A stretch of DNA of 64,000 nt from an uncultured Flavobacteriales bacterium (GCA_950073045.1 CATMQD010000001.1:25400-89399), one strand, 5' to 3'; positions 21,021 through 26,456 are shown, counted from the stretch's first letter. Notes: generated from the sequence alone by a model not told the origin. A program made the numbers and translations.

Positions 21021-21701
21021 CTATTTTTCGGAAAGACGATCGATTAAAATCTTCTTGTTATTGCGGCTTACGGGGATTTCTTGGCCTGCTAAGAAGACGG
21101 TGTTTTCCTCCAGTTTTTGGATCTTGTCTAAATTGATGATGTGAGATTTGTGAACCCTCAAAAAGTTTTCTGGCAACTTAGCTACGAAGGCTTTCATTGT
21201 GCTGTGCACGATATATCGCTTATCTTCTGTAACCACTTTAATATAATCCCCAAGTGCCTCAACGTAAGACACATCATCGGCAGAAAGCTTTACTAAAACA
21301 CCATCGGATTTAATAAAGAGAGAATTATCTACATCCGGTTTACTAAGGTTATCCTCATAATATCGAGCTCTTTGTACCGCAGAAGAGAAGCGGTCCATAT
21401 CTACTGGCTTAGAGATGTAGTCGGTAACATCGTATTCAAAAGCTTCAAAAGCATAGTGCTTTTTAGCGGTTACCATTATAACTTGAGGGACCTCTTTAAA
21501 GCTGGCTAAGAACTCTATTCCGCTCATCTCGGGCATTTCCACATCTAAAAAGATGAGGTCCACATGCCGCTTTTGCAAGGCAATTCTTGCCTCAATAGCG
21601 TTAGGGTACATACCTACTAACTCTAAGTCGCTTACTTGATTAATGCAAGACCTGATTGCTTCCCGTTGTATGGGATCATCATCAACAACGATACATTTCA
21701 T
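21021..21701 (-). CDS. LytTR (LytR/AlgR family) response regulator
   Basis: REC domain LIFLDVEMPEMSG with intact Asp; LytTR domain YVEALGDYIKV...FLRVHKSHIINL. Confidence 0.95.
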   Translation of the reverse strand: MKCIVVDDDPIQREAIRSCINQVSDLELVGMYPNAIEARIALQKRHVDLIFLDVEMPEMSGIEFLASFKEVPQVIMVTAKKHYAFEAFEYDVTDYISKPVDMDRFSSAVQRARYYEDNLSKPDVDNSLFIKSDGVLVKLSADDVSYVEALGDYIKVVTEDKRYIVHSTMKAFVAKLPENFLRVHKSHIINLDKIQKLEENTVFLAGQEIPVSRNNKKILIDRLSEK

Positions 21702-21804
21702 GAGGGAGATTCAATTGCTAACAAAAATGGCCCTAAAAAACTTAGAATGCAAGTGAAGTGGTTTATTAGCCTTAGATTCGCCTAAATAGTTCTTTTTCAG
21801 GCTT

Positions 21805-21834
21805 ACCGTTTATCGAAGAAAACCGACCGTTCGT
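21805..21834 (+). promoter_or_regulatory. LytTR-type direct-repeat binding site
   Basis: ACCGTTTAT (21805) and ACCGTTCGT (21826), 12-bp spacer, 21-bp period; both fit [TA][AC][CA]GTTN[AG][TG]. Confidence 0.75.
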
Positions 21835-21927
21835 CTTGAAAACGATATAATCTACGGTTCATCTAAAAGTTCCTCACTATCCTTATTAAGCCCCTTACGT
21901 TTGTTGGGTAATCGAAAAATTACGGAT

Positions 21928-24900
21928 ATGAAAACGTGGGGTTTATCAATTTTAATGGCACTTTCTTTTAGTGCATTCGGTCAAATTTTAACCGTAACCA
22001 ATACCAATGATTCGGGTCCCGGATCTTTACGTCAGGTAATTACCGACGCCAATTCAAACTGGAGTATTGATCGGATTGAGTTTAACATTCCAACTTCTGA
22101 TCCCGGCTATAACGCGGCGACAGGAGTGTTTACTATTGTAGTAAGCAGCACCGAGCTTCCTGAACTTAGCAACCGAGTACTTACCGTAGATGGTAGTACC
22201 CAAACTGCCTTTACCGGTAATACCAACACTACGGTATTCGGAATTGGTGGAACTGTTGGTTGCGATGATATTGCTTTAAGCCAGGTTGACGGTCCAGAAA
22301 TCGAAATCGTTGATGGAGTTGGTAACCTTAAGTGGGGTTTACACGCTACCGAGCGCGATATCACCATTAACGACATTACCATTCACAGTTTTGGAAACGG
22401 TTGGTTCATTTGGAATGAAGCTAACCTGTTAGTACGTGGCGGTGCCCGTAACTTCGAAGCCTTTAATATGGTTTTAGGATCTGAGGCTCATGCCGATATG
22501 GCTCCTAGCGGTGATGTAAATGGCGGTCCAAACTTCCAAGCCCTTCAAGTAAACGACGGTAAGTTCCATAACAGCTATGTGGCCTACGGAAACACCATGG
22601 GTGGTTTCTTACGTACAGGTTGTACTAATTGGGAAATCTATCAAAACGACTTTGCCCACAACGGTTTGGTAGATATGATTACTGATGGTTTAGATGTTGC
22701 CGACCACACTGAAAACTGTATCGTTCGCCACAATATGTTCCGTGATAATGGTGCTAATGGTTTTGACTCTTACAATTCTTTTGGTAATCACTTAATTGAA
22801 AACAATACCTCATTCGGAAATGGTATCCTTTGTAATGAAACCAACGGTATGCGTATCTACGGTTCTTATGGTGACACTATCCGCAAGAATAAAATTTACG
22901 ATAATGTTGGAGCCGGTATCTTAGTAGGTAGTGCTGCTGAAAAGCACTGGATTACTGAGAACTGTATCTACAACAACGGTAATATCATCCCTACTGGAGC
23001 TACTGGTGGAATCTCTCACCAAATTGGAATCGACTTACTTCGTTCTACCGACAATCACCGTAAAGGTACTAGCCCTTACGTTACTTTAAACGACGATAAT
23101 GATGTGGATGCTGGTGGTAATAAAGCCCAAAACTTCCCAATTATTGATGCGGTACTCATTAACGGTGGAAACCTTACCGTAAAAGGTTTTGCTCCTGCAG
23201 GTTCATTAATCGAGTTCTTTACTGCCAATGTTTACACTGGCGCTTATATGGCTCAGGGTCAGAGTTTCTTATTCTCTAAAACAGAAGGTAGCGCCGACGA
23301 TATGGACGCGAGCACCGGATCTTACGGTCCTGGTTTAATAAACGGTGTTGCGCAGGGAACTGAAACCAATGCTAATCGTTTTGAGTTTACCGTTCCTGTT
23401 CCTGCTGGATTTACAGCTGGAGATAAAATTACCGCCACAGCTTATTTAGCCGCCAATGGTACTTCTGAGTTTTGTGCCGCCTTTACCGCTACTGGTTCAA
23501 CTGGTACTGTAAATGTTACTCCTCAGTTAAACTGTGTATATATCGATGTAAATGGCAATGTAGTAGCTCGCTTTGGATATCAAAACCAAAACGGTTCTAC
23601 AGTAAATGTGCCGGTAGGTGGAAGCAATTACTTTAGCCCTGGAGCTCAGGATCGCGGACAAGGAACTGCTTTCCAATCAGGAACCCACTGTGATGTATTT
23701 GATGTAAGCTTTCCATCAGTTAGCTCATTAAGCTGGTACTTACAAGGAACTACCATTACGGCCGATATTAACAGCGTGCGCTGTCCTGCTGACTTAGAAG
23801 TAACTCAAACTGTTACCAACAATACGCCTAACACTGGTGATCAAGTAACCTTCACCATTTATGTAGACAACCTTACCTGTGGTGTTCCTGCAACTGCAGT
23901 AGTAATTGATTACTTAATCGACGCTAACTTCACCTATGTGAGCCATAACAGCCCAAGCAGCGGTACTTATAACCCTAATACTGGTGAGTGGACCATTCCA
24001 GAAGTTACTTGTGGTAATGTTCAAACTTTAGAAGTAACAGTATTAGTAAATGGAAATGGTAGCAACACTGCTTCTGTAAACAGTCAGAACCAACCAGACC
24101 CTAATACGGCTAATAACAGCGCTACTGAAAACTGTGCAACTGGTTCTTCAGGTTCTAACAACGGTGGTATCGAAAGCGAAGGTTCTATGGCTCGTTTAAT
24201 TGCAGCCCGTAACTACGAGCGTATCATCAGCGGAAAGCACACCTTCTACGACCGAATTAATGAGCAACCAACATTAAACGACTACCAGCGAAGCGCCATG
24301 GCAAAAACTAATGCCTTAAGCGATTACCTTCCTCCTGTAGGACCTCATAATGCTCCTGCGGTAATTGCCAGTCCAAACGACTTAATTGGTATTACCAATG
24401 CCTTAAATGTATTCTCTGTAGACTATTTGAATAATGCTCAAAACCGTTTAGGAAGTATCCTAGCAATTGAGACTCAAAACGAAGTTTACAATCATACCAA
24501 AGTTATTTGCGACCGATTAAATGGTGCTTCTTTGGAGAACATCAAAGTGGTAAACATCAAAGGTCATAACTTCATCATGTCTCACCTAGATCAGGGAGAT
24601 GGAATGGTAGATATCGCAGTAACCTTTGTAGCCTATAAAAAAGCGGATGGTAGCTTTGAGATTGATGCTCGTTGGAACCAACAAGACTATAATATTCAGT
24701 CTTCTGATAAAGTATATAACTTCCAAGTATGGTCGGTTTCTGAAAGCTTAACTCGCGAATTGGTAGAAGATATCTTAGACCTTATGGCGATGGACGGAGC
24801 GGTAGAAAGTTTAACTAGCACTCACGTTGCTATTCCTACTACCTATGTGAAAACTGGTCACTACGAGGATGGAAAGATCCACTTAACCATGGTAAATACT

Positions 24901-25884
24901 GTTGGTGCTGGTGAAATCAACATCATGGCTAACCGCACCATTAATGAGCAAGCTACTCGTACTCAATTTGGAGAACTAATTAGCTTAGACCCTACTAAAA
25001 CAGAAGAAACTGTAGTTTGGAATACCGGCTATATTTTCGATACTGGTTTTGAAATCTTAAATGATATCGGTGGTGGTCGTGATGTATTATACCTAGCCGA
25101 TGGTGCCTGGGGTGTAGACTTCGAGCGCGTAGTTGGAGCAACCAACACTAGCTTTACTACCCTTACCGAAAGCGGTTATGCTTTTGATGCTAACAAGAAA
25201 CACTTAGAGCGCGATGTACAGTTTGCTGGAAACGTAAAAAATTATGTGAGCATTTACCGCATGTTACGTTCTGGACACAAAGCCGTAGACATGAGCGCTT
25301 ACAATCAATTAACCTTCGAAGCCAGCTTAAGCGGAATGAGTGAGATGATTGTAACAGTAGTAACTGCCGACATCACTAACTGGAGCGAGCAATACCGTGT
25401 TACTGTACCAGTAAACAATGCCGCAATGGGAACTTATACTGTAAACCTTGCAGATCTTCAGTCTGCAGGAAACCTTCCCTTAGACTTAAGTAAAGTTCTT
25501 AATGTTACTTTCTCTATCGTGGGAGACTATAACAACTATGTTCCGGTAACCTTCGACGTCAGCAACCTTGAGTTTAACAGCAATGGAAACTCTATCGGAA
25601 CTGATGAGTTTACCGCACAAGCTGATGCTGGAATTAATGTGTACCCTAATCCTTTTAGTGGAGCAGCTCACATTGACCTTAAGTTAGAAAATGGAAGTGA
25701 CGTTCGCGTAGAGCTTTACGACCTAAGTGGTAAAATGGTTGACATGCAATCTATGGGATACCAATTGCGCGGAACCAATACCATGGTATACCAAAGTCAA
25801 GCTGAACTTTTAGACGGTATTTACCTAATGAAGGTTATCAGCGACAGCAAGACCTACACCCAGAAAGTGGTGTACCGTAAATAG
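21928..25884 (+). CDS. T9SS type-A cargo with right-handed parallel beta-helix, Ig-like and DUF11-like domains
   Basis: Signal peptide MKTWGLSILMALSFSAFG (ATG 21928); TVTNTNDSGPGSLRQ motif; N/G-rich IxNNxxxxNG repeats; CTD INVYPNPFSG...YTQKVVYRK. Confidence 0.88.
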   Translation: MKTWGLSILMALSFSAFGQILTVTNTNDSGPGSLRQVITDANSNWSIDRIEFNIPTSDPGYNAATGVFTIVVSSTELPELSNRVLTVDGSTQTAFTGNTNTTVFGIGGTVGCDDIALSQVDGPEIEIVDGVGNLKWGLHATERDITINDITIHSFGNGWFIWNEANLLVRGGARNFEAFNMVLGSEAHADMAPSGDVNGGPNFQALQVNDGKFHNSYVAYGNTMGGFLRTGCTNWEIYQNDFAHNGLVDMITDGLDVADHTENCIVRHNMFRDNGANGFDSYNSFGNHLIENNTSFGNGILCNETNGMRIYGSYGDTIRKNKIYDNVGAGILVGSAAEKHWITENCIYNNGNIIPTGATGGISHQIGIDLLRSTDNHRKGTSPYVTLNDDNDVDAGGNKAQNFPIIDAVLINGGNLTVKGFAPAGSLIEFFTANVYTGAYMAQGQSFLFSKTEGSADDMDASTGSYGPGLINGVAQGTETNANRFEFTVPVPAGFTAGDKITATAYLAANGTSEFCAAFTATGSTGTVNVTPQLNCVYIDVNGNVVARFGYQNQNGSTVNVPVGGSNYFSPGAQDRGQGTAFQSGTHCDVFDVSFPSVSSLSWYLQGTTITADINSVRCPADLEVTQTVTNNTPNTGDQVTFTIYVDNLTCGVPATAVVIDYLIDANFTYVSHNSPSSGTYNPNTGEWTIPEVTCGNVQTLEVTVLVNGNGSNTASVNSQNQPDPNTANNSATENCATGSSGSNNGGIESEGSMARLIAARNYERIISGKHTFYDRINEQPTLNDYQRSAMAKTNALSDYLPPVGPHNAPAVIASPNDLIGITNALNVFSVDYLNNAQNRLGSILAIETQNEVYNHTKVICDRLNGASLENIKVVNIKGHNFIMSHLDQGDGMVDIAVTFVAYKKADGSFEIDARWNQQDYNIQSSDKVYNFQVWSVSESLTRELVEDILDLMAMDGAVESLTSTHVAIPTTYVKTGHYEDGKIHLTMVNTVGAGEINIMANRTINEQATRTQFGELISLDPTKTEETVVWNTGYIFDTGFEILNDIGGGRDVLYLADGAWGVDFERVVGATNTSFTTLTESGYAFDANKKHLERDVQFAGNVKNYVSIYRMLRSGHKAVDMSAYNQLTFEASLSGMSEMIVTVVTADITNWSEQYRVTVPVNNAAMGTYTVNLADLQSAGNLPLDLSKVLNVTFSIVGDYNNYVPVTFDVSNLEFNSNGNSIGTDEFTAQADAGINVYPNPFSGAAHIDLKLENGSDVRVELYDLSGKMVDMQSMGYQLRGTNTMVYQSQAELLDGIYLMKVISDSKTYTQKVVYRK

Positions 25885-26073
25885 TACATATACCCCCTCT
25901 ATATCCAAAGGAGCCCGGTAACCCACTCCGGGCTTCCTTTAAACTGATTAAAACACCCCCTCTATATCCTAAAGGTTTCTCCCCGGTACCCACTCCGGGG
26001 GGAAATTTTACCCCACTAGTACATATACCCCCTCTATATCCAAAGGATCCCGGACAGACGTTCGGGATTCTTT
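25882..26073 (+). repeat. Three tandem modules, each CCCCCTCTATATCC(T)AAAGG plus a GC-rich terminator-like hairpin
   Basis: CCCCC starts at 25893, 25956 and 26028; a 31-bp sequence is identical at 25882-25912 and 26017-26047; hairpins at 25907-25940, 25971-26009 and 26042-26073. Confidence 0.9.
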
Positions 26074-26084
26074 ACTTTTGGGCC

Positions 26085-26456
26085 ATGCGAGTAGATAAAT
26101 ACCTATGGTGCGTGCGTAAGTATAAAACCCGCAGCCAAGCTACCGACGCGATTAAAAAGTCGCGAGTACGGGTTAATGATGAGGTGATTAAAGCTTCCCG
26201 CGAGGTAAAAGTGGGAGACCGAATTACTTTCAGAAAAGAAAGCGTGGATTATGAGATTGAAGTAATTGACATTCCGAAATCACGGGTGGGCGCCAAATTA
26301 GTGCCTGATTTAATAAAGGACACAACCCCTACGGAAGAGTTGGAGAAGAAAGACTTCATTAATATGATGCACAAGTTGAATCGGCCCCGAGGCACTGGAA
26401 GACCAACTAAAAAGGAACGTCGGGATTTAAGCGACTTTATGGACTTGGATGAATAG
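26085..26456 (+). CDS. hslR: S4-domain ribosome-associated heat shock protein Hsp15
   Basis: MRVDKYLWCVR.YKTRSQAT...GTGRPTKKERR. Confidence 0.92.
   Translation: MRVDKYLWCVRKYKTRSQATDAIKKSRVRVNDEVIKASREVKVGDRITFRKESVDYEIEVIDIPKSRVGAKLVPDLIKDTTPTEELEKKDFINMMHKLNRPRGTGRPTKKERRDLSDFMDLDE

Follow-up and report, generated by a model that had tools for sequence, protein, structure and literature searches.

A C-rich box and hairpin cassette downstream of a T9SS cargo gene in Croceimicrobium-like Flavobacteriales: conservation, tandem amplification and overlap with a putative leaderless promoter

The window analyzed in the current study is a stretch of 64,000 nucleotides from the 3.47-Mb draft genome (G000) of an uncultured Flavobacteriales bacterium (GCA_950073045.1 CATMQD010000001.1:25400-89399), and its subject is a tandem array of a C-rich box (C-box) and a hairpin that lies between two genes of the + strand. 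The upstream gene (21929..25884) encodes a cargo protein of the type IX secretion system (T9SS) of 1327 aa, which according to domain annotation contains a beta-helix, DUF11 and a C-terminal Por_Secre_tail. The ORF finder placed the start of this open reading frame (ORF) at TTG 21901, ATG 21929 being the probable start, and its TAG stop occupies 25882-25884. The downstream gene (26085..26456) encodes an S4-domain (Hsp15-like) RNA-binding protein of 123 aa, and its mRNA is probably leaderless. Three modules, each consisting of a box and a strong sense-strand hairpin, fill positions 25882-26080, between the cargo stop and the S4 ATG (26085). The order of cargo gene, intergenic region and S4 gene is maintained throughout the genus.

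All parts of the array are read on the + strand. C-box 1 (CCCCCTCTATATCC, 25893..25906) starts 8 nt past the TAG stop within a G-free stretch, and is followed by hairpin 1 (25907..25940; stem AAAGGAGCCCGG / loop TAACCCACT / CCGGGCTTCCTTT), with a folding energy of -18 to -19 kcal/mol. C-box 2 (CCCCCTCTATATCC, 25956..25969) precedes hairpin 2 (25972..26009), which has 15 bp, three G-U pairs and the loop TACCCACT, and folds with -22 to -23 kcal/mol. C-box 3 (CCCCCTCTATATCC, 26028..26041) is carried by a 31-nt exact copy (26017..26047) of positions 25882-25912, TAG included, and is followed by hairpin 3 (26042..26073; 14 bp, two G-U pairs), which is orthologous to the one hairpin of species with a single module. 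The modules are spaced 63 and 72 nt apart, the C-rich, G-free tract around the box is about 25 nt long, and the three hairpins range from -18 to -23 kcal/mol.

The box is present three times in the window as an exact sequence, and this number was reached in none of 100 shuffles; even with up to two mismatches, only 0.31 copies were expected by chance. Folding of the region against shuffled sequences gave z = -5.0 for the + strand and z = -1.5 for the - strand. An earlier note on this DNA, made from the sequence alone, had described three modules with exact boxes starting at the stop of the T9SS gene, a 31-bp identity between modules 1 and 3, and an ACCCACT common to loops 1 and 2. The sequence agrees with this description, the 31-mer TAGTACATATACCCCCTCTATATCCAAAGGA being found at 25882 and again at 26017. 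The note had also pointed to a 9/11 match in the leader of the cargo gene at 21872. This match (CCTCACTATCC) is present, but about 16 such matches are expected per 64 kb according to our own arithmetic, and no relevance can be attached to it. An Rfam search of the array with E up to 10 yielded nothing relevant. Within the cargo gene, at 25335-25476, Rfam returned IS605-orfB-II with 21.9 bits (E = 0.83), well below the gathering score of 88, and this weak match is almost certainly noise.

The intergenic region between the T9SS cargo gene and the S4 gene was compared among 16 Croceimicrobium-like genomes. Identity between species at the four-fold degenerate sites of the adjacent S4 gene is 18-41%, which corresponds to saturation, and against this background the box is unchanged across ten species, except for its last two bases in G004 and G008. 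A perfect stop-proximal copy is found in all species, and the S4-proximal copies show one or two mismatches in G001, G005 and G007. Three of the four substitutions seen in otherwise intact boxes at this locus are C-to-T. A conserved single-stranded stretch adjoining a terminator, as known for the seed of small RNAs (sRNAs) derived from 3' untranslated regions (3'UTRs), is therefore found here as an invariant box next to saturated four-fold sites.

Hairpin sequence and length vary between copies and pairing is kept. In an alignment that was fitted to its model and included paralogues, 94.8% of the cells were paired across relatives and 9 of the 13 pairs had changed on both sides, a result as high as this being obtained in 0 of 500 shuffles. 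The sense folds contain 34 G-U pairs against none in the antisense folds, and the sense strand is more stable for 26 of the 28 distinct hairpins. The pairing is thus strand-specific, which means that selection has acted on the structure in RNA with the sense of the cargo gene. The loops of stop-proximal-type hairpins retain CCCACU across species despite changing stems. Compensatory and G-U changes in the stems had been proposed in the earlier note from the three paralogues, which do not allow such a judgment, and were confirmed with the relatives. The further proposal, that selection acts on both an unpaired motif and an RNA hairpin and exceeds the needs of a terminator, is also supported, as the box is invariant where synonymous sites are saturated and recurs at unlinked loci, and the generic terminators of this genome lack it.

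The modules resemble intrinsic terminators in that they lie directly past a stop codon and form, in the sense RNA only, a GC-rich stem-loop with an A-tract/U-tract base. A proper U-tract directly 3' of the stem, however, is limited to module 3 (7 T of 9), and the tracts of hairpin 1 (3 T in the 7 nt scored) and hairpin 2 (4 T of 9) are weak. The relatives show the same difference: the 9 nt after the last G-C pair contain 6-8 T in the last modules (mean 7.0, n = 16) and 1-5 T in the internal ones (mean 3.1, n = 19), and the B-type modules of G007 have the U-run 5' and the A-run 3' of the stem. Because of these low T counts, the internal modules appear to be poor terminators, the true intrinsic terminator of the cargo mRNA is likely to be hairpin 3, the transcript probably passing the internal modules and ending there. 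The stacked terminators considered in the earlier note are disfavored by the same counts. The array also differs from ordinary intrinsic terminators in that the cassette is tandemly amplified, and in that its upstream box is sequence-specific, common to unlinked genes and absent from the other terminators of the genome.

The T-tract of the last hairpin also reads as a -7 promoter box of the S4 gene, a feature that the earlier note had overlooked. In Flavobacterium, the sigma-A -7 box is TAHHTTTG (T-12, A-11, T-8, T-7, T-6, G-5) with 4-5 nt to the start (PMC6847099, PMC9723704), and about 5.5% of the mRNAs of F. psychrophilum are leaderless (PMC9723704). The sequence TACTTTTG (26073..26080, + strand) matches this Bacteroidota consensus with G at -5 and ends 4 nt before the ATG at 26085, in the published -12 to -5 geometry. 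With this spacing, +1 falls on the A of the ATG, and the mRNA of the S4 gene is therefore most likely leaderless, with a promoter made from the preceding terminator. In 9 of the 10 C-box-bearing species, the last U-tract reads TA(C/T)TTTTG and is followed by exactly 4 nt and ATG. What sets this predicted promoter apart from other Bacteroidota sigma-A promoters is that its box is built from the terminator U-tract of the previous gene.

The number of modules at the S4 locus varies among the 16 genomes, being 1, 2, 3, 4 or 9. G004 and G008 have one module, and six further species have a single diverged one, made up of CCCCCCTTTATTAT and a hairpin. Two modules are present in G002, G010, G012 and G005, three in G000 and G001, four in the metagenome contig L036, and nine in G007, which contains four repeats of an A/B dimer with 93-99% identity between units. 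Modules m1 and m3 of M036 are 96% identical. Decayed copies were found as well, namely a hairpin-less box in G005, a degenerate box in m3 of G001 and the B-type boxes of G007. Amplification arose independently in at least five lineages. Copy number shifts by unequal recombination or duplication, as shown by the 31-nt identity with the TAG, the young units of G007 and M036, and the decayed copies. The 31-nt identity including the TAG is a scar of recombination or duplication, and not the result of selection on a stop codon, a point that the earlier note had missed. Part of the box 'invariance' among internal copies may stem from the same process.

The core of the box is ATACCCC(C)TCTATA. The pattern CCCC+TCTATA (four or five Cs) occurs at seven sites in the draft genome, and six of these directly precede hairpins of -19 kcal/mol or lower. 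Searches with nhmmer and regular expressions gave a total of 6 modules at 4 loci. Apart from the three copies in the window, between the T9SS and S4 genes, two lie behind tandem genes for LruC-domain lipoproteins on contig C2, in the form TAA-GTCCCTATCTATACCCCTCTATACAGAG followed by a hairpin and a U-tract, and one lies behind a gene for an M1 metallopeptidase on contig C10. The earlier note had named the absence of further copies and of conservation as what would speak against an RNA element; copies were found at other loci, and the box is conserved across species. The C-box is always 0-3 nt before the hairpin and always on the strand of the upstream gene, and it is G-free with a length of 14-35 nt, the conserved block at the LruC loci measuring 28-35 nt. 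From the start of the box to the S4 ATG there are 57-66 nt, by our own count from the intergenic sequences, and to the downstream starts across all loci 57 to about 270 nt. A 7-bp direct repeat with a 10-11 bp period is seen in some of the copies (TCTATAC-CCCC-TCTATAT).

The cassette family widens only once one C may drop. The LruC-type box was found behind LruC genes in G009, G001, G007 and G005, in a metagenome and in L082, and the M1-type box in the cultured C. hydrocarbonivorans, whose S4 locus holds two modules, and partly in G005. Farther homologues have plain terminators, namely LruC genes at 56-58% identity, including Winogradskyella, and M1 genes at 72%. A second tandem array is present in a relative (L079, 5358-6071), between an LruC gene and a gene for a GAF histidine kinase. 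It consists of three 238-nt units, each ending in a 35-nt LruC-type C-box block and a terminator, with 99.6% identity between the two full units. This array had no Rfam match and no convincing ORF; its units may represent sRNA genes in tandem, or gene 3' ends that were copied and have decayed.

Several other sequences were noted near these loci. The T9SS cargo gene is preceded (window 21804-21835) by boxes of the type ACCGTT(C/T)(G/A)TC, which often form direct repeats with a distance of about 21 bp and were also seen elsewhere in G000 (C2 ~36986, C6 ~4943, C14 ~21796-21826, C32, C318 ~926). The same 10-mer, ACCGTTCGTC, lies upstream of the second LruC gene, and the - strand of the window contains, at 21021-21701, a gene for a LytTR response regulator. 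Because such boxes lie upstream of both the cargo gene and the second LruC gene, the C-box genes may share a LytTR-type regulator. In G000, terminators at C72 ~9105 and C318 ~821 follow CCTTCCCCCC(C)-type runs without TCTATA, similar to the M1 locus (ATCCTTCCCCCTCTATA), and may be distant members of the cassette family. Two paralogous genes with near-identical C-terminal regions (G000 C3 ~35480 and C87 ~8257) carry ACCCCC and an AT-rich sequence immediately upstream of their terminators. The stretch CCTGACAAT(A/T)(A/C)GGCCGAAAT, which lies between the LruC terminator and a gene for an FKBP-type isomerase, is conserved in several species (G000 C2 ~39200, L076 ~5100, L077 ~5100, L074) and may be a leader or regulatory element. 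Long imperfect repeats (cagaacttagatcagtcgc ... gctccttgttagagcttaga) lie downstream of the LruC C-box terminator in the metagenome contig L082 (3600-4300).

A number of known element types were considered and rejected. A dispersed repeat of the repetitive extragenic palindromic (REP) or miniature inverted-repeat transposable element (MITE) kind, one of the earlier note's hypotheses, does not fit 6 modules at 4 loci in 3.47 Mb with unconserved hairpin sequences. Searches for exact matches and matches with up to two mismatches, nhmmer and a covariance model, applied to the genome and 61 family genomes, gave strong matches at the orthologous locus only, and an exact-pattern scan with an 18-mer across all GTDB species and JGI metagenomes likewise returned this locus only, chance matches aside. 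Enterobacterial REPs and bacterial interspersed mosaic elements (BIMEs) resemble the array in being intergenic hairpins between co-directional genes, with strain-variable copy number and possible effects on mRNA 3' ends. They differ in having hundreds of copies, a conserved palindrome and alternating orientation, whereas here there are few modules with a free hairpin sequence and a conserved non-palindromic box. An array of clustered regularly interspaced short palindromic repeats (CRISPR) was rejected on account of the spacing of 63 and 72 nt, of 'spacers' that are hairpins homologous between species, and of an array length of 1-9. Coding sequence or stop-codon read-through was suggested by IYPLY-like in-frame peptides at two loci, but spacing and frame differ between species, and an in-frame TAA follows the stop in G005, G007 and M036. 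A general feature of terminators was rejected too, as C-runs precede the terminator-like hairpins of this genome no more often than G-runs do (8 of 390, equal to the G-run count), and the share of C-runs with such a hairpin behind them does not exceed that of G-runs either.

Among sites for transcription factors and replication, a BoxA/N utilization (nut)-like antitermination site was rejected, as boxA in the rrn leader of this genome (contig C46) is GTTCTTTAAAATA, unlike the C-box. The tails of internal modules (window 25941-25955 and relatives; UUCUUUAACCAA, GCUCCUUUAAACAAAA) do resemble the boxA consensus and the rrn boxA; they are largely base-paired, and the likeness is probably a coincidence. 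A sigma-54 or sigma-32-like promoter in the box was rejected, as there is no -24/-12 element and, to our knowledge, sigma-32 would be unexpected in this phylum. A replication Ter site was rejected, the C-box loci being more than 1 Mb apart in complete genomes. Mimicry of the anti-Shine-Dalgarno (anti-SD) sequence acting on rpsU was dismissed, as rpsU has no SD here, and pairing with the cargo gene's own leader was dismissed because no complement was found there, the 9/11 match being of the same sense and no more than is expected by chance.

Tandem short hairpin modules with C-rich unpaired motifs are reportedly also found in the cuckoo/CcsR1-4 RNAs of Alphaproteobacteria and in LhrC1-5 of Listeria, and in these respects the present array is similar. 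CcsR RNAs are co-transcribed with an upstream ORF and lie within its 3' region. Here, however, the motif is outside the hairpin and not in loops, the phylum is another one, no promoter of each unit is evident, and the SD targets used by those sRNAs are missing in Bacteroidota. Membership in the cuckoo/CcsR family was rejected since no Rfam match was obtained with E up to 10, the box is located outside the stems, and a T9SS cargo gene stands upstream in place of a DUF1127 ORF. In S. aureus, a UCCCCUG motif in the icaR 3'UTR is said to pair with the SD of its own mRNA. That motif is similar in being C-rich, in its position in the 3'UTR of a surface-related mRNA and in a post-transcriptional action, and unlike in that no complementary G-rich stretch was found here in the cargo leader or elsewhere in the genome.

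Several explanations for the array were weighed. The modules might be 3'UTR-derived sRNAs or an RNA or protein sponge, the cargo transcript being cut between modules into RNAs of 60-70 nt with a C-rich seed and a hairpin, which would act on G-rich targets by pairing or would titrate a binder. Such sRNAs usually have a conserved unpaired box immediately 5' of a hairpin, as seen here, tandem arrays occur at two different loci, internal modules without U-tracts would be co-transcribed, CCCACU is kept in stop-proximal-type loops while the stems change, and the predominant C-to-T substitutions would preserve pairing with G. However, when complements were scanned in the 3.47-Mb genome, no G-rich partner stood out and the perfect matches were the modules' own antisense. 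Bacteroidota mRNAs moreover mostly lack SD-like G-rich start regions (PMC6847099), as does rpsU here, and a typical seed is shorter than the block conserved at the LruC loci. This explanation is considered unlikely. A function as termination accessory, in which the G-free, C-rich tract would load or contact Rho, NusA or NusG and the arrays would shield the S4 promoter from read-through, is in agreement with a box that is always 5' of a hairpin, usually a canonical terminator, and with the composition of the tract of about 25 nt, which is like that of a Rho utilization (rut) site. It also agrees with the overlap of the S4 promoter box with the terminator, as read-through would occlude that promoter. 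Yet several hundred other terminator-like hairpins in the genome do without the box, and sequence-specific conservation over 14-35 nt far exceeds what rut composition needs. The box also persists on internal modules without a U-tract, and the reversed A/U tracts of the G007 B-type modules mean that these are not terminators; such a role seems quite unlikely.

The other two explanations concern the extra copies and the DNA itself. Only the ancestral single cassette might be functional, the triplication being a tolerated by-product of slippage or unequal crossover and bound to decay. The variation from 1 to 9 copies between close species, the young arrays in G007 and M036, the decay products in G005, G001 and G007 and the recombination scar with the TAG would all be expected from neutral copies. 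Independent amplification in at least five lineages, together with a second locus in another organism, would not, and diverged internal hairpins still pair via compensatory and sense-only G-U changes. This account addresses copy number only and leaves the conserved box unexplained; it is regarded as decidedly unlikely. Finally, the box could be a DNA site (an operator or activator site, an UP-like element of the downstream gene, or a recombinase site) with only incidental proximity to the hairpin. The 7-bp direct repeat with its period of 10-11 bp resembles sites of winged-helix response regulators, the box start lies 57-66 nt upstream of the proposed S4 start, and rearrangement has occurred repeatedly at the box. 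Against this, the box always points the same way as the upstream gene, its first half-repeat lacks conservation at the T9SS locus, and the best-conserved copy is the stop-proximal and not the S4-proximal one. A phased DNA site is further disfavored because the distance from box to hairpin is fixed, whereas that to the S4 ATG, and more so to downstream starts across loci, varies. A DNA site is considered very improbable.

The element itself is real, conserved and absent from Rfam: a 3' cassette of C-box and hairpin, with an overlap of terminator and predicted leaderless promoter at its end. For its function, the reading that is tentatively favored is a 3'UTR cassette of Croceimicrobium and its close relatives, as far as searched, whose single-stranded C-box is read in trans, the cassette having been amplified by unequal recombination. 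The cassette consists of a G-free box of C, U and A only (core AUACCCC(C)UCUAUA) that stays single-stranded and is followed within 0-3 nt by a stable hairpin of the sense RNA. In the ancestral one-copy state it would terminate the cargo mRNA, and the U-tract of its hairpin would double as the -7 box for the leaderless S4/Hsp15-like mRNA. In several lineages, unequal recombination between C-boxes would then have added copies that kept box and hairpin, and not the U-tract. Transcription would pass these added modules and halt at the last hairpin, and the resulting 3'UTR would contain several C-boxes. As a sequence-specific landing site, the C-box would recruit a factor that acts in trans, a protein being likelier than a base-pairing RNA. 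This factor would set the fate of the 3' end (termination efficiency, processing or stability) for a few mRNAs of exported proteins, and extra module copies would multiply the landing sites.

A sequence-specific element read in trans at the RNA level is proposed because the geometry of box and hairpin is fixed while the downstream distance is variable, because orientation is constant and conservation goes far past compositional needs, and because the absence of G leaves the box unpaired. A protein is favored as the putative reader because the LruC block extends over 28-35 nt and because the genome scan gave no prominent G-rich RNA or site that is complementary to the box. Several observations weigh against the favored reading. 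In G013 the C-run at the S4 locus has been lost, so that this species can dispense with the box there, and the S4-proximal copies carry the mismatches described above. Box conservation in internal copies could reflect recent duplication or gene conversion and not selection on each copy. Positions -18 to -33 of the proposed S4 promoter are occupied by a GC-rich hairpin, unlike the AT-rich strong promoters of Flavobacterium, and no -33 element was recognizable at the locus. The 'exported-protein regulon' is drawn from a small sample of three gene families.

No conserved 3'UTR sequence signal common to several mRNAs of this group was found in Rfam or in the papers searched, and the literature search returned no report of such a motif and no Croceimicrobium transcriptome. 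The box is short, sharply conserved and G-free with a fixed geometry, is present on at least three unlinked mRNAs for exported proteins with a natural range of 1-9 copies, and is carried by a cultured relative, C. hydrocarbonivorans. In a more far-reaching form of the proposal, which is considered unlikely, exported and surface proteins of Croceimicrobium and its near relatives (T9SS cargo, LruC lipoproteins, M1 peptidase) would form a post-transcriptional regulon with the C-box as its address label, read by a putative RNA-binding factor next to the terminator hairpin, and the arrays would have evolved as multi-site sponges or batteries of 3'UTR-derived sRNAs. If true, this regulon would be the Bacteroidota counterpart of the C-rich RNA systems of the CcsR/LhrC type, in a phylum without SD pairing. 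The locus is also a clean case of a terminator U-tract reused as the promoter of a presumed leaderless gene, which is relevant to the prediction of operons and promoters in Flavobacteriia. RNA-based regulation in Bacteroidota outside Bacteroides is almost unmapped, and the result would be a modest one if the box is only a terminator accessory, and a new post-transcriptional system if a dedicated reader exists.

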